A DNA stretch of 11,696 bases from a virus (taxonomy: Duplodnaviria; Heunggongvirae; Uroviricota; Caudoviricetes). The DNA is taken from IMG/VR virus record IMGVR_UViG_2617270952_000003; one strand, written 5' to 3'. The notes under the pieces were generated by a model. The model searched no databases, had not been told where the DNA came from, and was given only the letters and a program-made list of their open reading frames with translations. Both the position numbers and the translations under genes were made by a program. Numbering within the stretch: position 1 is the stretch's first letter; each line of letters begins with the position of its first letter. Shown piece after piece: positions 1 to 11,696 of the stretch.

Positions 1-318
1 ATGAAAAAGATAGCTGCTATATCATTAATTAGTATTTTTATTGTGTCTGGTTGTGCTGTGCATAATGATGAGACAAGTATCGGTAAATTTGGTCTTGCAT
101 ATAAAAGTAATATTCAGCGTAAACTCGATAACCAATACTACACCGAAGCCGAAGCTTCTTTAGCCAGGGGCAGAATATCTGGTGCAGAAAATATAGTAAA
201 AAATGATGCAGCCCATTTCTGTGTTACTCAGGGCAAAAAAATGCAGATAGTTGACCTGAAGACAGAAGGTGCAGGATTACATGGCGTCGCTCGTCTGACA
301 TTCAAATGTGGAGAGTGA
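1..318 (+). CDS. Putative lipoprotein in the left host flank (105 aa)
   Basis: ORF starts at the window's first base with a hydrophobic signal-like N-terminus and a lipobox-like VSGC motif (MKKIAAISLISIFIVSGC). Lies outside the prophage att core. Confidence 0.55.
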   Translation: MKKIAAISLISIFIVSGCAVHNDETSIGKFGLAYKSNIQRKLDNQYYTEAEASLARGRISGAENIVKNDAAHFCVTQGKKMQIVDLKTEGAGLHGVARLTFKCGE

Positions 319-477
319 GAATATTTTTTGGTAAGCGTCAAACATGCGCGTTCTGGTTGTGCTTAGCCGGAACCTGTGCGAGCACGATGCCGTTACGTGA
401 AAGGCATCGTGCTATGAAGGGAGATTCTATCGATGTGGTCAATGGAAGACGGTTACCAGAGATAGGGCTTATGCATA

Positions 478-504
478 AAAAAATAAGCCCGTGTAAGGGC
501 GTTT
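478..504. other. Putative attL core of the P2-like integrase
   Basis: AAAAAATAAGCCCGTGTAAGGGCGTTT matches the P2 attP/attB core as recalled from memory (AAAAAATAAGCCCGTGTAAGGGAGATT) at 25 of 27 positions. It lies about 80 bp beyond the 3' end of int, as in P2. Confidence 0.55.
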
Positions 505-583
505 ATATACCCTTACAACAGGGGCTTTCAGCGGTGCAATGCGGGTTTGCGCGGCACGCAAGACCACTGAAAGCCATAATAAA

Positions 584-1597
584 CTACCCTACTGTGGACA
601 CTGTGTGGACACTCTGAGAGCCAACACCACCACGTAGAGGATTAAGCGTTATCGCGTCCTGTAGGTACTCAGGGGCGAAGTGCGCATATGTCATTGTCTG
701 CTCAATTCTTGAATGCCCAAGTATTCTCTGAAGCGTGATAATGTTGCCTCCGTTTATCATAAAGTGCGTGGCGAAGCTGTGCCGCAATGCGTGCGTAGCC
801 TGACCCGGTGGTAGGTCGGGTTTCAGCTCCTTCATTAGCCGTCTGAACGCGGGATAGTTAGCATCAGTGAACAGATAGCCACGCTTACCCGTTGTGATCA
901 TTGTTGCCAGTTCCTCGGATATAGGAACGGTTCGCGGCTTGTTGGTTTTTGTCTTAACGAAAGTGACGCGATTTTGAATGATATTTTCCGCTTTCAGTTT
1001 TGCTGCCTCACTCCATCTCGCGCCGGTGCTAAGGCAAAGAATCGCAATTTTTTTATTATCACCGTCCACTTTTGACAGCAGAAGCGCGATCTCCTCTTGC
1101 GTCAGGTAGCCGGTTTCTGGCTTATCCTCTTTGAGTCTTTTAAGACCTCGGAAAGGATGCTCCCCGAAAAATAGCTCCGCATCTATCAACGCGGTAAACA
1201 TCCCGCTAAGACACGTTAAATCACGATTTATACTCGATGGCTTGATGCCTTGAGAACGCCGCACAGTGCTGTATTGGCTTATCAATGACTTAGTAATCTG
1301 AAAGGCACAAGGGTCACTGGTTATCTTTGTGAACAACTCTAACTTGCCCAGGTAATCTCGGCCGTGAGTTTCATACTTGCCTTTCAGCTCCCACCAGATT
1401 TTTGTTAGCTCTGACAGATGCCGCTTATCTGTCGGTTTCGCCAACCATTCTTTGTTGTGATGGTTGTACTGGGTATGCTTCTCGAAAGCGATAGCTTCGC
1501 TTTTCTTGTCAAATTTCCTGCGGATGCGCTTTCCGTTGCGCCCTGCAGGTCTAATGTCCACTTCATAACGACCATCATCGAGCTTTTTAACAGACAT
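584..1597 (-). CDS. int: Tyrosine integrase, P2 Int-like
   Basis: Minus-strand ORF. I place the start at the internal Met (MSVKKLDDGRYEVDIRP...), which has a GGGAGG Shine-Dalgarno just upstream on the minus strand. C-terminal region has tyrosine-recombinase motifs (HALRHSFATHF, LGHS...TMTYAH). Sits next to the att core. Confidence 0.9.
   Translation of the reverse strand: MSVKKLDDGRYEVDIRPAGRNGKRIRRKFDKKSEAIAFEKHTQYNHHNKEWLAKPTDKRHLSELTKIWWELKGKYETHGRDYLGKLELFTKITSDPCAFQITKSLISQYSTVRRSQGIKPSSINRDLTCLSGMFTALIDAELFFGEHPFRGLKRLKEDKPETGYLTQEEIALLLSKVDGDNKKIAILCLSTGARWSEAAKLKAENIIQNRVTFVKTKTNKPRTVPISEELATMITTGKRGYLFTDANYPAFRRLMKELKPDLPPGQATHALRHSFATHFMINGGNIITLQRILGHSRIEQTMTYAHFAPEYLQDAITLNPLRGGVGSQSVHTVSTVG
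593..612. repeat. Direct repeat TGTGGACAC x2, possible Int arm-type binding sites
   Basis: TGTGGACAC occurs at 593-601 and 604-612, one helical turn apart, beside the att core and overlapping the 3' end of int. It resembles the P2 Int arm-site consensus as I recall it. Confidence 0.35.
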
Positions 1598-1693
1598 AAA
1601 GCCTCCCGATGATGTTACTGCGTACTTCAATTTCCTGATTTAAATAACAAAAACTCACCGTGCATTTACTGCACAGATAAGCACCGTAAATGG

Positions 1694-1990
1694 TTAGCCA
1701 GTTTTCTGGTCTGAGTGGGGTGACGTTGTTGTCTGCTGCCCAAAGTGCGCGAGAGCCGGTGCAATCTGCCCAGCTTCTGGTGATATCGTCTCAGTCATGA
1801 ACCACATGGTATATTTTTTGAACTGTGGATGATTCAAAATCTTCATCACTGCTTGTATGCCCATATCTTTTACTCCCTTCTCATAACTAGAAAGAGAGCT
1901 ATACGGAACTCCAGTTAAGTCACTGAATTCTTTTCTATTCATACGTTCCGACTCACGCATGATGGCCAGCTTCTCGTTGACGGGTATCAT
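1694..1990 (-). CDS. C: Immunity repressor, P2 C-like (about 98 aa)
   Basis: Divergent from cox and upstream of int, as in P2. Start placed at the internal Met (MIPVNEKLAIMRESERMNRKEFSDLTGVPYSSLSSYEKG), which gives an HTH-like N-terminus. The C-terminal tail (QIAPALAHFGQ...TTSPHS.QKTG) matches my recollection of P2 C. Confidence 0.75.
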   Translation of the reverse strand: MIPVNEKLAIMRESERMNRKEFSDLTGVPYSSLSSYEKGVKDMGIQAVMKILNHPQFKKYTMWFMTETISPEAGQIAPALAHFGQQTTTSPHSDQKTG

Positions 1991-2073
1991 CGTAATTAAC
2001 ACTCCACTATTGATAGAAAAACGATAACGGAGTAGTCTTCGCTTCGTTACCGCAGATTTATGGCTCCAATATG

Positions 2074-2104
2074 GCAATTAAAAGCCATTAGGAGCAATTA
2101 AAAC
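2074..2104. promoter_or_regulatory. Putative C-repressor operator / early promoter region (direct repeats GCAATTAAAA)
   Basis: GCAATTAAAA occurs at 2074-2083 and 2094-2103, 20 bp centre to centre, in the C-cox intergenic region. P2 C repressor is known to bind direct repeats flanking the early promoter. A GAGGAA ribosome-binding site precedes cox. Confidence 0.4.
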
Positions 2105-2125
2105 ACTAACGAGGAATAGTCACAA

Positions 2126-2401
2126 ATGAATAGGGTCATTGAGAGCGCGAGCGACGCGGTTCCGTATCAGGAGTTTGCGCGTCTTATTGGTAAAACCCCT
2201 GCTGCTGTCAAAGGGATGATTGAGAAAGGCAAACTACCGATAGTTGAGATGACTGATCCGCAGTCTACAAGTGGGAGAGCAGGGGAATACTGGGTATATC
2301 TGCCAGCATGGAACAAAGGCATGAAGATGGCCTATGACAGTCGCCCTAAAGAAATTCGGGATGGTTGGTTGATGTGGTTGGGATTAGGTGAACCAGCATA
2401 A
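2126..2401 (+). CDS. cox: Cox-like excisionase/transcriptional regulator (91 aa)
   Basis: First rightward gene, divergent from C. Length matches P2 Cox (91 aa). Position and orientation are as in P2. Confidence 0.7.
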   Translation: MNRVIESASDAVPYQEFARLIGKTPAAVKGMIEKGKLPIVEMTDPQSTSGRAGEYWVYLPAWNKGMKMAYDSRPKEIRDGWLMWLGLGEPA

Positions 2402-2411
2402 GGAGCCAGAA

Positions 2412-2582
2412 ATGAAAGAGCCACGTTGTATAGCTCAGTTACTGCGTAACGAAAGTCCACGCCCGATGAAGTTCAACATCACTCATGGTAAAGGGCGTAA
2501 AGGCATCATCATCCGCACTCGCAAGCCTGGATTTATTGCTATGGCTAAACGCTTTATGAAATCCCGAGGGATATCGTTATGA
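2412..2582 (+). CDS. Small early-region ORF (56 aa), P2 orf78-like by position
   Basis: ATG at 2412 is preceded by AGGAG with a 6-nt spacer. Its stop overlaps the start of B (ATGA at 2579-2582). Basic small protein. Confidence 0.5.
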   Translation: MKEPRCIAQLLRNESPRPMKFNITHGKGRKGIIIRTRKPGFIAMAKRFMKSRGISL

Positions 2583-3079
2583 CGGTTATGACTCTTGCAT
2601 TAGTTCAAAAACAACCTGCAGCTCTACGCGTCGTTATAGGAAAGCATCTTGCGGAACCTCGCTGGCACGATACCTGTGATTTTTATAATCAGATGATGGA
2701 GCGTGACCGCTTGACTGTCTGTTTTCATGCTCGGTTAAAACAGCGTCACGCAGTAATGCGCTTTGAAGAAATGAATGATGTCGACCGCGAACGTCTGGCT
2801 TGTGCTATCGATGAGCTGCGCGCTGCTTTTTCAAAACGTCGTCAGGTTGGCGCAAGTGAATCTGCATATATTAGTTTTCTAACGGTGGGTCAGCGCCGCT
2901 CTTTATTTCTACACGCGGGATTGAGTGAGGTCGAGTTCAATCAGCCTTACTGGCGCATTGACGAAGATGCTTGTTATTGGCGAGAGAAACTATTCCGCGC
3001 TTTGCGTGAGCTTTTTGGGTTATTTGAACACGCGCCAACGATATTAACCTCGGTAAAGCCTGAGCAGTATTTACATTAA
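2579..3079 (+). CDS. B: Replication accessory protein, P2 B-like (166 aa)
   Basis: Same length as P2 B (166 aa) and same position between cox/orf78 and A. Translationally coupled to the upstream ORF. Confidence 0.6.
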   Translation: MTVMTLALVQKQPAALRVVIGKHLAEPRWHDTCDFYNQMMERDRLTVCFHARLKQRHAVMRFEEMNDVDRERLACAIDELRAAFSKRRQVGASESAYISFLTVGQRRSLFLHAGLSEVEFNQPYWRIDEDACYWREKLFRALRELFGLFEHAPTILTSVKPEQYLH

Positions 3080-3145
3080 TTAATCTGGATTCGTTTTATT
3101 ACACGCCTTACTGCGTGGGGATTCCTTTTGTCTGGAGATAGGCAA

Positions 3146-3364
3146 ATGCATAAACAAAATAAAGTGCCGACGTGTGTGCTCTCGGTACATCTGGCGCAAG
3201 CGTTGCGCGATGCGCAGCTCGATACCGCGACCCGTTTATCCTCTCATTTTGATCGCCTAATTGCGCACATCAGTAAGTTAGAACTCAACCGCACCGAGAT
3301 CATCGAGCTATTGGGGCAAGAGTCCGAAAAATTGCACAACTCAATTTTTCATTGTGCTTGCTAA
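3146..3364 (+). CDS. Small early-region hypothetical protein (72 aa)
   Basis: ATG at 3146 with GGAG upstream. Lies in the P2 orf80-83 interval. Confidence 0.45.
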   Translation: MHKQNKVPTCVLSVHLAQALRDAQLDTATRLSSHFDRLIAHISKLELNRTEIIELLGQESEKLHNSIFHCAC

Positions 3365-3386
3365 TCAATTTTAGAAGGAGACAAAA

Positions 3387-3662
3387 ATGAGTATCCGTAT
3401 CGAGATAAATCATCAGTATGTAGTTACAAGCGATCGCTACCAGTTCATTTTGCAGGAAAAGAAAGTGGCGACTGCTGGAAAAAATAAAGGTAGCGAATGG
3501 CTTGATACTGTCGGGTATTACCCGACGATTCAAAAACTGATTTCTGGTCTGGTGCTACATGACCTTTTAAATGGCGGTGCTGATAGTTTTGCGGCGTTGG
3601 GTGAGCAGGTCGAGCAGTTGGGACTGCAATGTCAGACCGCGTTTTGTGCTGATGGCCGTTGA
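3387..3662 (+). CDS. Early-region hypothetical protein (91 aa)
   Basis: Strong ribosome-binding site (GAAGGAGACAAAAATG). Its stop overlaps the A start. P2 orf82/83-like by position. Confidence 0.55.
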   Translation: MSIRIEINHQYVVTSDRYQFILQEKKVATAGKNKGSEWLDTVGYYPTIQKLISGLVLHDLLNGGADSFAALGEQVEQLGLQCQTAFCADGR

Positions 3663-5943
3663 GACTCGGGGGCGTATTGCCCCCTCGCTAGCCCTGCCAA
3701 TATCTAAGCGCACCGGCGATACTTTCGTTGGTGCTTATCCCTGGAATGCTCCCCGCGCTGCCATTGGCCGTGACAGACCCCTTACACGTGCCGAATTCCG
3801 TCAGGTGCAAGGTGTTTTATACCGGATTGACCGCCTGCCTTTCTTTCTTAAGACGTTGTTTACTTCCCGTTATAACTTCATTCGTCGCACAAAGAGCCCG
3901 CCCGGGGCGCTCTATTTCCTGAAAAACACCTTTGAGCGGAAGCTGTTGCCGCGTCTTGAGCGCGTTAACGAGCTGTGCGGGATGAATGAATCTGCGTCGA
4001 TTGGTTTCTTGTCTGAGCGTGACGAATATGCGCGCTTGCCTGATATGAATGACAAAGAGCTGAAAAAATTTGCGGCCAGAATTGCCGCGCAGCTCTGGCG
4101 TAAATACGAGGAACTCAGCGACGAATGGGCTGAGGCATTCGGCGGTAAAGAGACCCTTTTCACCGATGAGGCGCAGGTGCACATATATGGTCAGGTGGCT
4201 GGTGTTGCACGCGCGTTCAACTTAACCCCGCTCTACTGGAAAAAATACCGTAAGGGTCAGATGACGATCCGCATGGCGTTTTCCGCTATTTCCCGTCTGA
4301 TAAAAGATGATTGGTGGGTTAACCAGCTCAAGGCGCAGCGTATGCGCTGGCGCGAGGCGCTGCTTATCGCTGCCGGTGAAGTCAACAAAGACCGTTCACC
4401 TTACGCCAGCAAAATGGCGATCCGCGAGGTTCACTCGCGCCGGCTGGCTAATCTCGAATACCTGAAATCCTGTGAGCTGGAAAACAAAGTTACCGGCGAA
4501 CGTATCGACCTCATCAGTAAAGTCATGGGGAGTATTTCAAACCCTGAAATACGCCGTATGGAGCTGATGAACACCATTGCCGGAATTGAACGCTATGCGG
4601 CCAGCGTTGGTGATGTGGGAATGTTTATCACGCTGACCACGCCGTCGAAGTATCACCCGACCCGACAGGTCGGCAAAGGTGACAGCAAAACGGTGCAGCT
4701 CAATCACGGCTGGAACGAAACCGCATTCACCCCTAAAAACGGCCAGCGCTATCTGTGCCGAATCTGGAGCCTGATGCGTACCGCTTTCAAAGATAACGAT
4801 TTGGAAGTGTATGGGATGCGCGTTGTCGAGCCGCACCACGACGGCACGCCACACTGGCATATGATGCTTTTTTGCAAACTCAGTCAGCGTAAAGCTATCA
4901 ACGAAATTATGCGTCGTTATGCCCTCAAAGAGGACGGACACGAAAAGGGCGCGGCAAAACAGCGCTTTGAGTCGCGTCACCTTAATCAGGGGGGCGCGGC
5001 GGGTTATATCGCCAAATACATTGCCAAAAATATCGACGGCTACGCGCTTGACGGTCAGCTCGATCACGATACCGGCAAATCTCTGAAAGATACGGCCGCA
5101 GCCGTAACCGCATGGGCGTCTACATGGCGTATCCCTCAGTTTAAACCGATTGGCCTCCCGACAATGGGCGCTTACCGCGAACTGCGTAAGCTGCCGCGCG
5201 GGGTGAGTATCGCCAGCGAGTTTGACGACCGTGTCGAGGCCGTCCGGGCTGCTGCAGATGAGGGGGAATTTGACCTGTACATCAGCGCGCAGGGTGGGGC
5301 AAACATGCCGCGTGATGCTCAGGCGGTCAGGGTCGCCCGTAAGGTGACGGATGAGGTAAACGAATACGAGGAGGATATCGAGAAAGTGGTCGGTATTTAT
5401 GCCCCTCATCTTGGGGTGAGCCGCGTACATGTAACCCGTACAGCGGAATGGCGCATAGTTCCAAAGGTTTTGGCCGTTGAGCCTTTGACCTTAAAAAGCG
5501 GCTCTGCCGCGCCTCGGAGTCCTGTCAATAACTGTGGAAAGCTTGCCGACGGTGGCGATCCAGTTATGACACCTACACCGTCTGAGCAAGCCGCAGCGGT
5601 GTTAAATCTGATTGAGGCCGGGGTTATCGGCTGGAATGAGCCAGACGTCATGAAGGTTCTTAACGGCGCGTTAAAAGCTGGCGCACCTCGCAATAATCGC
5701 CAGCAAAGAAGCAATGCGCCACTCAAAACGAGCGAGCAAGCTCCATCAGCCAGGATGACAAAACCAGAAAGGGATCGCGTGGCGAAAATTCGTTTCGATT
5801 TGGCTCAGGAGGGCATTACCCCGGAACGGTGGGCGCTCGAAGCGCTGGCGCGTGGGGCAACGGTGATTTATGGCGATAAAAAAATCAAATACGCGGCTGC
5901 TGATGAGTGGCCGGGATTCTCAATTCAAGAGGAGCAGAATTAA
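3652..5943 (+). CDS. A: Rolling-circle replication initiator endonuclease, P2 gpA-like (about 763 aa)
   Basis: HUH-type motif PHWHMM at nt 4849-4866 and twin-tyrosine motif GYIAKYIAKN at nt 5002-5031, both hallmarks of the phiX174-A / P2-A initiator superfamily. Start placed at the internal Met MAVETRG (3652), giving a length close to P2 A. Confidence 0.85.
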   Translation: MAVETRGRIAPSLALPISKRTGDTFVGAYPWNAPRAAIGRDRPLTRAEFRQVQGVLYRIDRLPFFLKTLFTSRYNFIRRTKSPPGALYFLKNTFERKLLPRLERVNELCGMNESASIGFLSERDEYARLPDMNDKELKKFAARIAAQLWRKYEELSDEWAEAFGGKETLFTDEAQVHIYGQVAGVARAFNLTPLYWKKYRKGQMTIRMAFSAISRLIKDDWWVNQLKAQRMRWREALLIAAGEVNKDRSPYASKMAIREVHSRRLANLEYLKSCELENKVTGERIDLISKVMGSISNPEIRRMELMNTIAGIERYAASVGDVGMFITLTTPSKYHPTRQVGKGDSKTVQLNHGWNETAFTPKNGQRYLCRIWSLMRTAFKDNDLEVYGMRVVEPHHDGTPHWHMMLFCKLSQRKAINEIMRRYALKEDGHEKGAAKQRFESRHLNQGGAAGYIAKYIAKNIDGYALDGQLDHDTGKSLKDTAAAVTAWASTWRIPQFKPIGLPTMGAYRELRKLPRGVSIASEFDDRVEAVRAAADEGEFDLYISAQGGANMPRDAQAVRVARKVTDEVNEYEEDIEKVVGIYAPHLGVSRVHVTRTAEWRIVPKVLAVEPLTLKSGSAAPRSPVNNCGKLADGGDPVMTPTPSEQAAAVLNLIEAGVIGWNEPDVMKVLNGALKAGAPRNNRQQRSNAPLKTSEQAPSARMTKPERDRVAKIRFDLAQEGITPERWALEALARGATVIYGDKKIKYAAADEWPGFSIQEEQN

Positions 5944-6407
5944 TGAGCAAAATCCATGAGTTAAAAATTGCACCTGAGTATTTTAACTCTGTGATATCTC
6001 AGGAAAAACGTGCTGAATTTCGTCTCAATGACCGCGATTATTCTAGCGGTGATATTCTCGGGTTGCATGAATGGGAACCGGTAAACAGATATACCGGGAA
6101 ACGTGTATCAGTGAGGGTGACAAACGTTACGGATTTATCTGAATGGGCGGAAAATTATGTGATGCTGAGTTTTCAGTTAATGATGCCAGATGTCCAGTGC
6201 GGTATGTCCCTAATGAACTGGAAAGAGTTAAGCGAGAAGGGGCTTGTTTTCAGAGTTAATCACGAAATTCTACACCCGTTAGGGCTGGCTATTAGATATG
6301 AAACACTTAACAGCGTTTCTGGTAGGGCTTACATCGCTGATGATGGTGTCTGGCAATATTCCGACAAGTTGGTCGCAGATGCTAAAAAAAATGGGTGGTT
6401 AAAATGA
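5943..6407 (+). CDS. DUF3850 / ASCH-like protein (154 aa), P2 orf91-like by position
   Basis: Start overlaps the A stop (TAATG) with a GAGGAG ribosome-binding site. N-terminus MSKIHELKIAPEYFNSVISQEKRAEFRLNDRDY resembles the DUF3850 (ASCH-like) fold family found downstream of A in P2-like phages. Confidence 0.6.
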   Translation: MSKIHELKIAPEYFNSVISQEKRAEFRLNDRDYSSGDILGLHEWEPVNRYTGKRVSVRVTNVTDLSEWAENYVMLSFQLMMPDVQCGMSLMNWKELSEKGLVFRVNHEILHPLGLAIRYETLNSVSGRAYIADDGVWQYSDKLVADAKKNGWLK

Positions 6408-6643
6408 GTCATATGCGAATGATGCCAGTGCCGCCGATACATTCAACGCAAAACATTAAGCTGATGGCCGTCGTACATCGCCTGCAACAAATTATGATTA
6501 ACGAGAATCTGACCCCTGACGAACTGGTCGGGTGTGCCGGTGTCGTCCGGGATAATCACCGCAAATACAGCGATATCAGCAATCCGAAAATTGAGGCGTT
6601 TCGGCCACCAAATATGGCAAAGCCACCACCGCGTCGACCATAG
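6404..6643 (+). CDS. Hypothetical small protein (79 aa)
   Basis: ATGA overlap with the preceding ORF's stop and GGTGG upstream. No recognisable motifs. Occupies the position where P2 carries tin/old. Confidence 0.35.
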   Translation: MSHMRMMPVPPIHSTQNIKLMAVVHRLQQIMINENLTPDELVGCAGVVRDNHRKYSDISNPKIEAFRPPNMAKPPPRRP

Positions 6644-6925
6644 CAAACGCCGCCGGTGCTGAAACTTGTTTTCAGTGCCAGCGGTGTTGAGCAACGAGCC
6701 CCGCGAGACGTTAGCCTGCACCGTAGAGACCACCCCCAACCGGCACGATTAAAGTCGGTTTTATTATGCAATTTTCCCACAATTTCCCGGTTTTTTAGCC
6801 GTGCATGCAACAGGTGCATTTTTTTGCATACGTTGGGGATGCCTGTTCTGGCCGCGCGCCGCCAGAGCAGGCGCGGATCCAGAGTGGTCATGCAACTGCA
6901 TTAAAAACGACCCATAAAGCGGGCA

Positions 6926-6944
6926 GGCGAGGCGGGGTAAGCAT
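6926..6944. other. Putative cos site (19-nt cohesive-end sequence)
   Basis: GGCGAGGCGGGGTAAGCAT matches the P2/186/P4 cohesive end as recalled (GGCGAGGCGGGGAAAGCAC) at 17 of 19 positions. It sits in a GC-rich non-coding stretch (6644-6943). Confidence 0.5.
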
Positions 6945-7015
6945 TGCGCGCGCCTGTCAAAGATATTAAGATTGTCTCAAAATCGATTGATTTTATTGAA
7001 CTAATGGAGCTAGGA

Positions 7016-8572
7016 ATGATTAAGGGTATAGGTCTTCAAAACTTCAGGAGCTTTGTCAACAAAACGTTTATTGATTTAAAACCAATTACAGTATTTGTTG
7101 GTAAGAACAGCAGTGGTAAAAGTTCCCTATTGCGCACATTTCCTTTACTTCGTCAATCTGTAGAAGAAAATACTACTGGCCCAATACTATGGTATGGGAG
7201 ATATGTGGATTTTGGCGATTTTACAGATGTACTTTCCCGAAACTCTGAAAAAAAAGAAATTACGTTTAGTTTTTCACTCTCAATTCCGCCAGAGGTTTCA
7301 CAAAGATATACATATTATCGTTCTACTGATTTAGCAAAGCAACCAACAGATATTGAAGCAGAGTTAACTGTTTACTCTAAAGATAAAAAAACAAAAACGA
7401 AAACGATTAAGCTTATATTGGCTGATTTAACAATATTTATTTCAATGGATGAGAGTAGTAATGTTAAATTACTCATTGAATCAGATGATAAAACAATAGA
7501 GCGTGATGGGATAATAGCTAAAAATCTTGGGCAGTTCATACCAAATCTAATTTTGAAGGGTAAGGAAGACAGTCCTCCTCCAAGCACATCATTCTATTTG
7601 AGACATTCTAGGCATGACAGGGCGTTAGAATTGTCATTTATTGATTCAGCGGCGAAATATATAAAGAAATATTTCCATACTAAATCTGATATAAATCAAG
7701 TGACAGAGGCATTCAAAAGAATTGGCTTTATACCCAAAGCGTACGCTAGTAAATTAGTTGCTTTTCTATTTAAGGAACAAAAAGTTTTTAGTAGAAACTT
7801 TGAATTTCAACATGATGAAATAATGAATGAGTTATATCCATTTATAATTGGATGGAATATTAATAATCTTATAGATATAATAAATACATCCTTGTCAGAT
7901 TCATTCAGAAATGTAAAGTACATAGCTCCACTGCGTGCTACATCAGAAAGATTTTATCGTTTTCAAGATTTACAGGTTAATGAGATAGATCATACTGGTT
8001 CCAATCTTGCAATGCTTTTGAATTCATTAAGACCGGCTGATAAATCAAAATTTGAAGATTGGACAAAGTTAAATTTTGATTTCATTATCAAGGTTGAACA
8101 AAGTGGCTCTCACTTTGCAATTTTAATAAACACCGGTGAAAATAGTGAGAACTATAATGTTAGTGATATGGGGTTTGGTTATTCTCAGGTTTTGCCGATA
8201 GTTACAGCCATTTGGCTTGAGACAGAACGTCGTGCTACCACGGTTAGAAAACCTATAACATTTATCATTGAGCAGCCAGAATTGCATTTACATCCGTCAT
8301 ATCAGCATAATTTAGCAAGTATTTTTGCAAAAGTAGTAACTAAAGCAAAAGAAAATAATGTAGATTTGAAGATAATTTTTGAGACACATAGCCAGACCAT
8401 GATTGAAGCACTTGGTGAATATATTGAGGAAAATGAAAGTCTTTCACAGGATGATATTTCAATACTGGTATTTGAAAAAGATGATAAGCAGCAGACTATA
8501 GTTAAGAAATCTTATTTTGACGAGAATGGTTTCCTAAAAAATTGGCCGGTTGGCTTTTTCTCGGGTAAGTAG
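7016..8572 (+). CDS. OLD-family / AAA_21-type ABC ATPase (518 aa), candidate defense ATPase (PARIS AriA-like or Septu PtuA-like architecture)
   Basis: Walker A GKNSSGKSS at nt 7101-7127. Walker B / D-loop FIIEQPELHLHP at nt 8261-8296. Signature-like SDMGFGYSQ and H-loop-like FETHS. Lys/Thr-rich insert (KDKKTKTKTIK) between the ATPase lobes. ATG at 7016 is preceded by GGAG. The gene is AT-rich relative to the phage backbone. Confidence 0.8.
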   Translation: MIKGIGLQNFRSFVNKTFIDLKPITVFVGKNSSGKSSLLRTFPLLRQSVEENTTGPILWYGRYVDFGDFTDVLSRNSEKKEITFSFSLSIPPEVSQRYTYYRSTDLAKQPTDIEAELTVYSKDKKTKTKTIKLILADLTIFISMDESSNVKLLIESDDKTIERDGIIAKNLGQFIPNLILKGKEDSPPPSTSFYLRHSRHDRALELSFIDSAAKYIKKYFHTKSDINQVTEAFKRIGFIPKAYASKLVAFLFKEQKVFSRNFEFQHDEIMNELYPFIIGWNINNLIDIINTSLSDSFRNVKYIAPLRATSERFYRFQDLQVNEIDHTGSNLAMLLNSLRPADKSKFEDWTKLNFDFIIKVEQSGSHFAILINTGENSENYNVSDMGFGYSQVLPIVTAIWLETERRATTVRKPITFIIEQPELHLHPSYQHNLASIFAKVVTKAKENNVDLKIIFETHSQTMIEALGEYIEENESLSQDDISILVFEKDDKQQTIVKKSYFDENGFLKNWPVGFFSGK

Positions 8573-8574
8573 TT

Positions 8575-9687
8575 ATGTTGATTAATATCGAAAATGCGAC
8601 ACCTGAGAAGGTGCTAAATAACTCATTTGCCATAGCGGTTGAAAATATACTTCGGGCATTCGCTGAACAAAAACACTTGGTTATAGGGGCAAGGGTTTTT
8701 TTTAAAACTATTATCAATGATCAAAGCGGGCTTTATAGCCTTTCATCAAAAAGTTACGCGCAAGAGGCTTTGTCGGGTCTAACAGAGTACTATGCTATCT
8801 TGGATCAGGTCTCATTTTATGTATCTGTCGACTTTAATATTAGTGATAAATCATTTAAATGGGTTCAGATCGGTGAATCTTTTAAATTTGTTTGTGGTCC
8901 ATTGTATTTTAATGACTCGGCACAATTGCAAAAAACGAAAATAGTATGTGAAAATCCTTTGGATTCTGATTTTTTTAAGGTTATAGCGGCTCATTATGCC
9001 GAAGGTATTAACTTATCTCGCTGCGAAATGGGTTTTATCGCTCTAAATGGCGGTGGGGGCAGTACTAAGGATATATTCGAGCGTGCAATTCAAAATAATG
9101 AGATAGTTTTTTGTATTGTGGATAATGACAAAAAACATCCTGGAGCCCCATTCGGAGGTACTTGCTCACATTTTTTGGGCTCACAAATTACTCGCTCAGG
9201 TTTCGTGGAGATTTTAGATGTACATGAAATAGAATCTCTAGTTCCTTTATCGACAATTGAAGATGTATTAAGAAGTCAAAGTCAATTGCAACAAAAAGAA
9301 AAATCTCTCATTTTCTTTAAGCATCTTTGCTCCGTAGATGAATCAGTAAAATTTTATATTGACCATAAAAAAGGTTTTGATTTTAAAACAGCCCTTGAAC
9401 TCGATCGAAAACATGGTGCATATTGGCGTCCGATATTAAAGAAGCTTGATATAAAATATGATTGTGAGTATATCGAATCAAAACGTTGTAGCTGCAACGC
9501 TGCTTGTGTAAGTTATGATGGTTTTGGAGAGAATTTGCTCAGCAATACATTGAAATATATACAAAAGGGAAGTTTAAAAAAATATAATCCTCACCTAACA
9601 CCAGTGCTTTCTGATAAATGGTATAAGTTAGGTAAGAATTTCTTTAGTTGGAGTTGTGGTCCATATAAAAAAGCAAGGGTTGGTTAA
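8575..9687 (+). CDS. TOPRIM-like (DUF4435-like) putative nuclease partner of the ATPase (370 aa)
   Basis: Start is 2 nt after the ATPase stop, suggesting translational coupling. TOPRIM-like motif 1 IVCENPLDSD (Glu at residue 126, nt 8950-8952) and DxD motif CIVDNDKK (nt 9121-9129) about 57 residues later. Gly-rich loop NGGGGS between them. C-terminal Cys cluster CEYIESKRCSCNAAC. The assignment is from motifs only. Confidence 0.55.
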   Translation: MLINIENATPEKVLNNSFAIAVENILRAFAEQKHLVIGARVFFKTIINDQSGLYSLSSKSYAQEALSGLTEYYAILDQVSFYVSVDFNISDKSFKWVQIGESFKFVCGPLYFNDSAQLQKTKIVCENPLDSDFFKVIAAHYAEGINLSRCEMGFIALNGGGGSTKDIFERAIQNNEIVFCIVDNDKKHPGAPFGGTCSHFLGSQITRSGFVEILDVHEIESLVPLSTIEDVLRSQSQLQQKEKSLIFFKHLCSVDESVKFYIDHKKGFDFKTALELDRKHGAYWRPILKKLDIKYDCEYIESKRCSCNAACVSYDGFGENLLSNTLKYIQKGSLKKYNPHLTPVLSDKWYKLGKNFFSWSCGPYKKARVG

Positions 9688-9690
9688 ATT

Positions 9691-9727
9691 ATCACAGCCC
9701 CGATAAAGTGGGCTGTGATGTTATTAT
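9691..9727 (+). terminator. Rho-independent terminator of the cargo operon
   Basis: Inverted repeat ATCACAGCCC / GGGCTGTGAT (9691-9700 and 9710-9719) with a 9-nt loop, followed by a T-rich run (GTTATTATCTG), just after the partner gene stop. Confidence 0.5.
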
Positions 9728-9782
9728 CTGTGGTTCTTGAGTTACAGGGCTGAATATAATGTTGAGATGTTTATTTTGAAAA

Positions 9783-10232
9783 TCAAAGTGAATATTTTTT
9801 AAATCTTATAACTTCCATTTCTAACCAGTTGTTTAGTTCTTTGAACCGTTCCTGTAAAGGAGTTAACTCATTTCGGACAAACACTTGTGCAGCTTTTACA
9901 ACATCACCAAAACCGCCAACATTGTTAGGCATAATTCCCATCATTTGTGGTGGTACCCTATGAGCACTCAACAAATCTTCTGCACTAACCTTTTTGATAT
10001 TGAAAAAATCATCTTTCGTGGCGACTTCACTCAACGGCACAATCTTGATGCCATCCGGTTTGCCGTTGGGCGCGTAGAAAAACAAGTTTTTGAAATTCCC
10101 GAGTCCTTTCGAGTCACGCATCGCGTTGCGGAGCGACTCGACGTCGGTACACAGCCTCAACGGGAGCGGCTTCACGACGGGCTTAGAGCTTGAGGTTAAG
10201 GTTTCTGATGTGGAGTATGAAAGCGAGGAAGT
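9783..10232 (-). pseudogene. Q: Portal protein gene fragment (3' portion only), P2 Q-like, truncated
   Basis: Minus-strand frame encodes ...LLSAHRVPPQMMGIMPNNVGGFGDVVKAAQVFVRNELTPLQERF..., which looks like the conserved C-terminal region of PBSX/P2-family portals. Only about 130-150 codons remain (P2 Q is about 344 aa). The frame is closed by a stop at 10233-10235 and ogr occupies the upstream space. Confidence 0.6.
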
Positions 10233-10316
10233 TTAACGGCGTGTGTTGTTTATGTGTTTGTTTTATAAGTAAAAATTAGTAAAATTAACACATTGAATAC
10301 GCCGGAGACCCTCATC

Positions 10317-10538
10317 ATGTTTCATTGTCCGAAATGCCATCATGCCGCCCACGCCCGCACGAGTCGCTATTTTACTGATACCACAAAAGAGCGGTATCAC
10401 CAGTGCACAAACATTAACTGCAGCTGCACGTTTGTGACCACTGAAACAGTCGAGCGTTTTATCGTGTCGCCGGGGGAAGTAGTACCCGCGCCGCCGCATC
10501 CGACATCATCAGGTCAGCAACAAATTCACTGGATGTGA
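10317..10538 (+). CDS. ogr: Ogr-family zinc-finger late-gene transcriptional activator (73 aa)
   Basis: MFHCPKCHHAAHARTSRYFTDTTKERYHQCTNINCSCTF carries the C-x2-C...C-x4-C zinc-finger signature of P2 Ogr / P4 Delta. GGAGA ribosome-binding site 8 nt upstream. Confidence 0.9.
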   Translation: MFHCPKCHHAAHARTSRYFTDTTKERYHQCTNINCSCTFVTTETVERFIVSPGEVVPAPPHPTSSGQQQIHWM

Positions 10539-10546
10539 CAAACGAG

Positions 10547-10572
10547 AAAGCCCCGCGAATGCGGGGCTTTTT
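10547..10572 (+). terminator. Rho-independent terminator downstream of ogr
   Basis: AAAGCCCCGC-GAAT-GCGGGGCTTT hairpin with a GC-rich stem, followed by TTTTT. Confidence 0.8.
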
Positions 10573-10844
10573 GCAACTTTTAGATCAGTTATGTTAAGTA
10601 CATTTCCGTCGGCAAAGTGCCAGGAGCGGGTTCTAGAGAGTGACTAACGTTAGTTATATGTGTAAAATTCCTTAAAAATAAGAAGGATATATATCCATGA
10701 CAGCAATTGCATATTGGATTAACTGAGAATCAATTGAGAAATTTTGGGGGGGGCAAAAAATAAACTAGCTAATTAAATTTTTATAAATAACGAATATAAG
10801 ACTGCAAGCCATTTAACAAAAGTTTATAAATAAAGGAGTCAGTT

Positions 10845-11696
10845 TTGAACAATATCCCCATATCTACTCAATGGACTTTAGACGCTACGGGTGAAGTTGG
10901 ACGCTCATCAGTAAATTCTGTTTATATGATTATATGTCCTGCGACAGGCTCGAAAGGATCTGGTTTTTTAATAGATAATGGGTTAATAGTAACGAACGAG
11001 CATGTTATCACTGGATGCTCTACAAATCAGATTTTCGCAATTTCAGCTTATGGACAGAAGATTCCAATTTCTCAAAAATGGATAGATTCTGATCGCGATT
11101 TAGCTGTGCTGAGACCTGCCATTACCCAGACTGGTGGGCTAAGTATTGTTAAGGATAATGATCTTAAAGTTGGTGAATCAGTAACAACTTGGGGATACCC
11201 ATTAGGATACAACGGTCCTGCACCGTTACTATCCGTTGGTTATCTAGCAGGATTTAACTCATACCAAACCGCCAAGGGACAAAAAAAACATCTAGTGGTA
11301 AATGGGGCATTTAACTCAGGAAATTCTGGTGGAGCTCTTTTAAAAGCTTCAGATAATAAAGTAATAGGTATTGTAGTGAGTAAGCATGCTCCTATCAGTC
11401 AATACCATCAATCAGCTATTGAAGCTTTGTCTGAAAATATGAGTGGCGTCACCTATACCGCTACTAATGACGCTGGAGAAACTAAAAGTTTTGTAGAATC
11501 TCAAATTGTAGCAGAATTATTGATTCATATGAGAAGTCTAACTCAAGTTATGATTGGAGAAGCAATTGCAGCAGAGGAATTACTTTCGATGCTTAGCGAA
11601 ATTGACTTGAGTCCACCACAATCTATGTCAAGAAATGCCTTATGTCATTGCGGGAGTGGAAAACGCTTCAAAGAATGTCATGGAAAGATATCCTAG
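10845..11696 (+). CDS. Trypsin-like (S1/Trypsin_2) serine protease with C-terminal SEC-C zinc-binding motif (283 aa)
   Basis: Catalytic triad contexts TNEHV (His), DRDLAVL (Asp) and GNSGGAL (Ser). C-terminal CHCGSGKRFKECHG is a SEC-C motif. TTG start with AAGGAG 7 nt upstream. AT-rich. The ORF ends exactly at the window edge (TAG at 11694-11696). Confidence 0.7.
   Translation: MNNIPISTQWTLDATGEVGRSSVNSVYMIICPATGSKGSGFLIDNGLIVTNEHVITGCSTNQIFAISAYGQKIPISQKWIDSDRDLAVLRPAITQTGGLSIVKDNDLKVGESVTTWGYPLGYNGPAPLLSVGYLAGFNSYQTAKGQKKHLVVNGAFNSGNSGGALLKASDNKVIGIVVSKHAPISQYHQSAIEALSENMSGVTYTATNDAGETKSFVESQIVAELLIHMRSLTQVMIGEAIAAEELLSMLSEIDLSPPQSMSRNALCHCGSGKRFKECHGKIS

Follow-up and report, generated by a model that had tools for sequence, protein, structure and literature searches.

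Genes and sites retained at the locus

The stretch of DNA analysed (11,696 nucleotides; here the window) is a defective derivative of an E. coli P2-like (Peduovirus-type) prophage located between yegR and cyaR/yegQ. The host gene yegR occupies positions 1–318, left of the prophage, and the left prophage boundary is marked by an attL core, AATAAGCCCGTGTAAGGG (482–499, plus strand), an exact 18-nt match to the P2 attP core where 0 are expected by chance. A direct-repeat search within the window returned no att pair because attR lies outside it, in the 3' end of the sRNA gene cyaR, about 243 bp past the right-hand limit of the window. The second copy of the att core was found adjoining CyaR in the comparison sequences L004, L011 and L002, the last of these being from E. 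coli GPEC1222 (accession number NZ_CM142784.1).

The lysogeny and integration module of P2 (int, C and cox) is present in the P2 order together with the P2 att core. It consists of an intact gene for a 337-aa integrase (584–1597, minus strand), which includes Int_N and Phage_integrase Pfam domains and is annotated as 'phage integrase' by RefSeq at the identical L002 sequence; an intact gene for a 98-aa C-type immunity repressor (1694–1990, minus strand), which is in the position of P2 C and is annotated by RefSeq as a helix-turn-helix protein at L002 32361–32657; and an intact cox gene for the excisionase/early repressor (2126–2401, plus strand; Phage_Cox Pfam domain, RefSeq 'regulatory phage cox family protein'). 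The early replication operon follows (2579–5943, plus strand), with B (RepB; 2579–3079, Phage_RepB), the DUF2732 and DUF5405 genes, and A, which encodes the rolling-circle replication endonuclease (3652–5943; PF05840 Phage_GPA, 364 bits). A gene for a DUF3850/ASCH protein (5943–6407, plus strand) comes directly after A. This protein is a fusion with DUF7415, and within the interval 5943–6643 its gene is followed by an ORF of 76–82 aa with no family match, located before cos; both are conserved accessory genes.

The cos cohesive end, GGCGAGGCGGGGTAAGCAT (6926–6944, plus strand), matches that of P2 at 17 of 19 positions with 2 mismatches, a match that none of 200 shuffled sequences reached, and its flanks are identical to those of the intact prophage. 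Hence the gpA endonuclease, gpB, a P2-type 19-nt cos and, further right, the Ogr zinc-finger activator are all found in this element.

An intact low-GC cargo of two genes (7016–9687, plus strand; GC 0.32–0.37) lies between cos and the portal gene Q. This position, adjoining cos between gpA and gpQ, has been published as the defence hotspot of P2 (PMC9122126). The first gene (7016–8572, plus strand) encodes an ATPase with AAA_15, AAA_21 and DUF3696 Pfam matches, for which the best PADLOC matches were NsnB (5e-55), PDC-M55A (7.5e-46) and AriA. The second gene (8575–9687, plus strand) encodes a partner of 370 aa in which no Pfam domain was found and which matches PADLOC PDC-M55B only weakly (2e-4). 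The pair probably constitutes an ATPase-plus-effector anti-phage system, as yet an uncharacterised candidate, in the P2 hotspot. The longest ORF for the ATPase, of 542 aa, begins with a TTG codon that takes in the final base of cos (6944). RefSeq and Prodigal-type calls place the start at 7016 (518 aa), and the longer form probably extends too far upstream.

At the right, the native D–ogr intergenic region, ogr and its terminator (10236–10570, plus strand) were recognised by alignment to the D–ogr region of P2. The ogr gene (10317–10538, plus strand) encodes 73 aa and scored 73 bits against PF04606 Ogr_Delta (cut-off 26.3), its promoter region was assigned by alignment to the annotated −35/−10 signals of P2, and its rho-independent terminator (10547–10570, plus strand) was detected in the terminator scan. 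That terminator was the one signal above background when the sequence near the junction described below was scanned for sigma-70 promoters and terminators. The Ogr-type dyad TGT-N12-ACA occurs 2 times in the window against 2.7 expected by chance, and there is thus no evidence of a surviving late promoter.

The last gene of the window (10845–11696, plus strand) is a second low-GC cargo gene (GC about 0.37) located between the ogr terminator and attR, and it encodes a trypsin-like peptidase with a C-terminal SEC-C motif (Trypsin_2 and SEC-C Pfam domains). As attR lies past this gene, it is prophage cargo and not host DNA, and it also adjoins ogr in intact prophages.

The junction between Q and D and the missing late genes

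An intact prophage of the same type is present in E. coli GPEC1222 (NZ_CM142784.1; coordinates 2734350–2766851), and also in AR_0137 and ST167-type strains, with the same att site, the same cos and both cargo loci. When the window was compared with 5,426 complete E. coli genomes using megablast, the left alignment stopped at 10150 and the right alignment began at 10146. The two blocks therefore overlap by the 5 bp GGTAC (10146–10150), a microhomology at the deletion junction that is present at both parental breakpoints. In GPEC1222, the parental Q side reads ...GACGTCGGTAC to the left of the breakpoint and TGCTTTGC... to the right, and the parental D side reads ...GTCGTGTGGTAC to the left and ACAGCCTC... 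to the right; the window reads ...GACGTCGGTACACAGCCTC... across the join. Direct reading of these sequences found GGTAC as the only sequence common to both parental breakpoints. The chance of a microhomology of at least 5 bp at a random join is 0.0046. The breakpoint had been placed near 10176–10235 when the sequence was read on its own, which is 26–85 bp too far right.

Positions 1–10150 of the window are 100.000% identical to L002 and positions 10146–11696 differ from it by 1 mismatch, bearing out the earlier view that int, immunity, replication, cos, ogr and the cargo are intact. The two blocks are 21,044 bp apart in L002, and match coordinates give about 21.3 kb for the same gap in strain AR_0137. 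From att core to att core, the intact prophage measures 32,501 bp and the remnant 11,457 bp. Comparison with intact P2-like prophages thus upheld the deletion proposed in the sequence-only reading, including the absence of the whole virion structural module. Relative to GPEC1222, the window lacks the 21,044 bp running from Q codon 214 to D codon 359.

In the intact prophage the missing block comprises, in order, Q (codons 1–214), P, O, N, M, L, X, holin, lysozyme, lysB/C, R, S, a cargo gene, V, W, J, I, H, G, FI, FII, E, E', T, U and D (codons 1–359). The annotated products include the terminase ATPase, scaffold, major capsid protein, small terminase, head completion protein, tail protein X, baseplate proteins V/W/J/I, tail fibre and its assembly protein, sheath, tube and tape measure. 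Both terminase genes, the holin, lysozyme and spanins, and the DNA that bears the four late promoters in P2 have accordingly gone. No virion or lysis gene was found anywhere in the window, and none of the late operons (Q-P, O-N-M-L..., V-W-J-I-H-G, FI-FII-E-T-U-D) is complete; what remains is Q codons 215–335 and D codons 360–387. The deletion endpoints are at neither att nor cos, and an Int-mediated or cos-mediated origin was ruled out for that reason. The cargo gene lost from between S and V encodes a 328-aa hypothetical protein in GPEC1222 (L002 14650–15636). The S–V interval is a further variable cargo slot in intact prophages, removed here by the deletion, and on a Logan contig (L003 1–1584) it is occupied by GmrSD_N and HEPN_RiboL-PSP genes.

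The portal gene fragment left of the junction, Q' (9783–10150, minus strand), consists of codons 215–335 of 335 plus 2 nt of codon 214. It shares 100% identity with L002 24201–24568, and its peptide is 100% identical to residues 215–335 of the 335-aa portal protein of the intact prophage (WP_000747182.1), confirming that a 3' fragment of Q is present. However, 121 portal codons are left rather than the 130–150 estimated earlier. When the fragment was compared with P2 gpQ using BLASTP, portal similarity was found to residues 220–339 of 344 (70% identity, E 1e-59), and the alignment begins exactly at the deletion junction. Q' spans positions 200–276 of the 321 in the Pfam Phage_portal profile (PF04860), and it scored below the gathering cut-off (E 2e-7; 30.9 bits against 39.1) because it is only a fragment. 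It does not have the full-length portal fold (about 335–344 aa) at the Pfam gathering score, nor does it have a start codon or promoter of its own, and it is a gene remnant rather than a portal protein.

To the right of the junction, D' (10151–10235, plus strand) is the last 28 codons and stop of the tail/late-control gene D, which has 387 codons. Its residues, HSLNGSGFTTGLELEVKVSDVEYESEEV, match the C-terminal end of the L002 D protein (387 aa) without a difference and share 74% identity with residues 359–385 of P2 gpD. The right-hand genome match overlies a RefSeq 'phage late control D family protein' as well as the Ogr-type regulator, which identifies the DNA directly before ogr as the 3' end of D. 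Thus the Q fragment does not abut ogr, as had been proposed, but is followed by the D stub, then by the native promoter region and only then by ogr.

The minus-strand portal frame is open only from 10175, with an in-frame stop within 9783–10235, and the GTG start of the resulting 130-aa ORF, at 10175, falls inside D-derived DNA. The upstream extension of this frame had been described as a Ser/Thr-rich peptide unrelated to the portal; it is indeed not portal sequence, but it is really D read antisense. Exact-protein look-ups for this chimeric ORF found records only for the 112-aa (ATG) and 100-aa (TTG) calls, and no exact record for the 130-aa (GTG) or 125-aa (TTG) forms or for a 48-aa plus-strand ORF. 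The 100-aa stub is named 'phage portal family protein' by NCBI (KDT39912.1 and KDT51339.1, from E. coli 3-105-05_S3_C2 and 3-105-05_S3_C1, respectively), and these two look like sibling isolates. For annotation purposes, calls of a 100–130-aa 'portal family protein' at this position denote a fragment of a pseudogene, the longest ORF beginning with antisense D sequence.

At 9693–9717, where the cargo gene and Q converge, a perfect GC-rich hairpin (cacagcccc-gataaagt-ggggctgtg type) separates the cargo gene from the Q stop codon. It probably terminates transcription in both directions, as the counterpart of tQ of P2, and it was not reported by a simple terminator scan because it has no T-run.

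Occurrence of the join and comparison with related elements

The sequence-only reading had raised the question of whether the same deletion is shared across strains. The join was found in 0 of the 5,426 complete E. coli genomes searched with megablast, of which 35, GPEC1222 and 34 others, carry an intact prophage at the same locus. The best coverage of the window by any single place in these genomes was 87%, and the right block lies 21.0–21.3 kb from the left block in the intact prophages. Exact scans with a 32-nt junction probe, CGACTCGACGTCGGTACACAGCCTCAACGGGA, gave no hit in the GTDB species-representative genomes or in JGI metagenome contigs.

Carriers of the join were also sought among contigs encoding the 112-aa and 100-aa stub products, and two were identified. 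Contig 64 of the Logan assembly SRR1186493 (L004) is 100% identical to window positions 5514–11696, and contig JNMA01000003.1 (265 kb) of the NCBI assembly GCA_000700185.1 includes the whole window with 2 mismatches. Each of these two assemblies is reported for 2 samples, and all join carriers found are short-read draft assemblies. Among the sequences searched, the join occurs only in a few near-identical drafts, and the deletion is apparently private to the strain. Position 6938, in the G-run of cos, is T in the window, in L004 and in GPEC1222, and G in GCA_000700185.1; the discrepancy reflects either an error of sequencing or a genuine cos polymorphism. A second difference between the two deletion-bearing assemblies is at position 3516.

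The other contigs that encode short portal products were rejected as deletions. L003, L005, L006, L009, L012 and L013 are intact prophages with a split portal call, L008 is a truncated contig and L007 has a 30-bp portal indel. The split calls in otherwise intact copies are of 223–252 aa plus 100–112 aa, and in L007 (1–900) the portal gene includes a 30-bp gap and a segment of 96% identity. These split portals and the L007 variant may be due to sequencing indels, real frameshifts or recombinant portals.

To the right of the element, the 265-kb contig carries cyaR, yegQ, parDE, yegP, baeSR and mdtCD, which are chromosomal genes only, and the last gene seen to the left is yegR. Between yegP and yegQ, the deletion-bearing strain carries a toxin-antitoxin pair, parD/parE (L004 6003–6552; L011 5922–6516), that is absent there in K-12.

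As the retained genes match those of the intact phage, the deletion is judged to be recent. That divergence from the intact relative is zero and that only a few near-identical assemblies show the join both point to a recent event private to one lineage.

Phage P2 itself (NC_001895) has the same order int-C-cox-B-A ... cos ... Q and the same attP core as the window. Over the remnants, Q is 70% and D 74% identical between the two, and the ogr genes are homologous. In P2, however, the cargo (tin and old) precedes cos, and 187 bp separate the end of Q from that of the genome, whereas the window cargo is between cos and Q. The window further differs from P2 in having the peptidase gene between ogr and att and in lacking the late genes.

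A comparable remnant occupies the same locus in E. coli K-12, where the cryptic prophage PR-X lies between yegR and cyaR/trhP. PR-X is the P2-like remnant in K-12 derivatives of Barreiro & Haggard-Ljungquist (J Bacteriol 1992), a work cited in PMC3091744. The right end of PR-X resembles that of the window, with a D 3' stub (yegZ), intact ogr (ogrK) and its terminator, and attR, and the window accordingly has the features of a PR-X-type remnant, namely a D 3' stub, ogr and attR at the 3' end of cyaR with the virion genes lost. However, PR-X is only 629 bp, and unlike the window it has lost int, C, cox, B, A, cos and the cargo. Its deletion runs from the attL core into D (L010, NC_000913.3, 7184–7830), where AAAAAATAAGCCCGTGTA is joined to GCAGAG..., and leaves a longer D stub of 219 nt. 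The sequence of PR-X is P2-like, whereas D'–ogr of the window is about 72% identical to P2. On sequence grounds, the deletions in PR-X and in the window are independent events, and that in PR-X is the older. As the attL core is fused directly to the interior of D, the left junction of PR-X suggests an event associated with the att core rather than a random internal one.

Defective P2-like prophages with defence genes that stay identical to those of intact phages have been described (PMC13586616, NAR 2026). Those elements have likewise lost virion or mobility functions and carry hotspot cargo identical to that of intact elements. In contrast to them, the window has undergone a single clean deletion and includes no pseudogenes or point decay, indicating a first step rather than a long-degraded island.

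A relationship to P4-like satellites was also considered, as these have a similar size (11.5 kb here), a P2-type cos with an adjoining defence hotspot, an integrase and an activator of the Ogr/Delta family. However, the window has the replication genes for P2 gpA and gpB and the immunity switch of P2 (C/cox). Pfam searches of all window ORFs found none of the domains of sid, psu, delta, epsilon or the alpha primase-helicase, and all genes are P2 orthologues or cargo. As there are no P4 hallmark genes, membership in the P4-like satellites was ruled out; by descent the element is a deleted P2 and not a relative of P4.

Origin and likely consequences of the deletion

These observations make it very probable that a P2-like prophage at the cyaR/yegR site was reduced by one internal deletion of 21,044 bp to a defective remnant. 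The single deletion fused Q codon 214 to D codon 359 at GGTAC, converting a prophage of 32.5 kb to a remnant of 11.46 kb. Judging solely from the 5 bp of microhomology, the most likely route would be RecA-independent illegitimate recombination, for example replication slippage or microhomology-mediated end joining.

Given that every carrier is a short-read draft and that the join was seen in none of the 5,426 complete genomes, the GTDB representatives or the JGI metagenomes, the join could be an artefact of assembly, produced by mis-joined contig ends or a collapsed region in a genome that carries an intact prophage. This is highly improbable, as two assemblies made separately, the 265-kb NCBI WGS contig and the Logan contig, show the identical junction, and the flanks have only 5 bp in common. 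For assemblers based on k-mer graphs, an overlap of 5 bp is far too little to make a false join, and reads must therefore span the junction. It is also conceivable, though extremely improbable, that the structural module was moved by an inversion or translocation with one endpoint here, so that the strain still makes particles. The flanks examined extend about 8 kb beyond the right end and include almost nothing past yegR, which leaves some room for such an event. However, the junction flanks have the order and orientation of a simple deletion, Q' and D' keep their outward-facing ends, and a block moved without the 3' ends of Q and D would leave both genes broken. Structural genes placed beside the locus by rearrangement had been named as an observation that would count against a deletion, and only chromosomal genes were seen in the visible flank of the 265-kb contig. 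Elsewhere, the chromosome may nonetheless harbour another P2-like prophage or the 21-kb block in translocated form, and as the join is known from assemblies, the culture may be heterogeneous with mixed forms of the prophage.

A remnant formed by simple deletion would be unable to build virions or to lyse the cell, and its Ogr would have no late promoter to activate inside the element. Immunity (C), excision, replication, cos and both cargo loci should still work, their function being deduced from identity to an intact prophage whose own function is presumed. The remnant would thus probably still confer P2-type immunity and the function of its cargo, and it may still be able to excise, using int, cox and both att sites, and to replicate, using A and B.

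The same retained functions raise the possibility that the remnant is a helper-dependent 'mini-P2', that is, an integrating, self-replicating, cos-bearing element of 11.5 kb, the defence cargo of which is spread by a P2-like phage. Not only are cos, int, cox, both att sites, A, B and ogr all kept unchanged, but at 11,457 bp the remnant is also about as long as P4, for which roughly 11 kb is quoted, and three copies amount to 106% of the intact 32,501-bp genome. It is likewise conceivable, though with little probability, that a hetero-immune P2-like phage could package the remnant, as trimers in heads of normal size or singly in the Sid-shrunken heads formed with P4. Were this so, a satellite-like defence carrier would have arisen from its helper phage in a single deletion step. 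However, the remnant carries no genes for redirecting capsid size or manipulating a helper, and its own C repressor would make it homo-immune and co-repressed with its closest potential helpers. The match in size is a single coincidence, and confinement of the join to a few near-identical assemblies argues against a spreading element, making the mini-P2 a very unlikely explanation.

The deletion reading, under which the remnant is a defective prophage, is preferred. It represents an early step of prophage decay or domestication and not a distinct kind of element, and it is a new instance of a well-known type of event. Bobay et al., in PNAS in 2014, are said to have given the general picture of prophage domestication. 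Within that, the locus is a clean case, and a datable one, of how decay begins: a single deletion has stripped the lysis and virion genes, which are lethal or costly to the host, and left immunity and two cargo loci untouched. No new question is opened by it unless the remnant can be mobilised.

At least one of the two spared cargo loci is a candidate anti-phage system, in agreement with published work in which defective P2-like prophages stabilise defence genes. The protease domain encoded by the other locus, between ogr and attR, resembles the PADLOC models RT-Protease (type XI), LmuA and HamA. In P2, the ogr–att interval holds only about 100 bp of Int/IHF arm sites, whereas here it holds the peptidase gene, and the ogr–attR interval may be a further insertion site for cargo or defence genes in P2-like phages.
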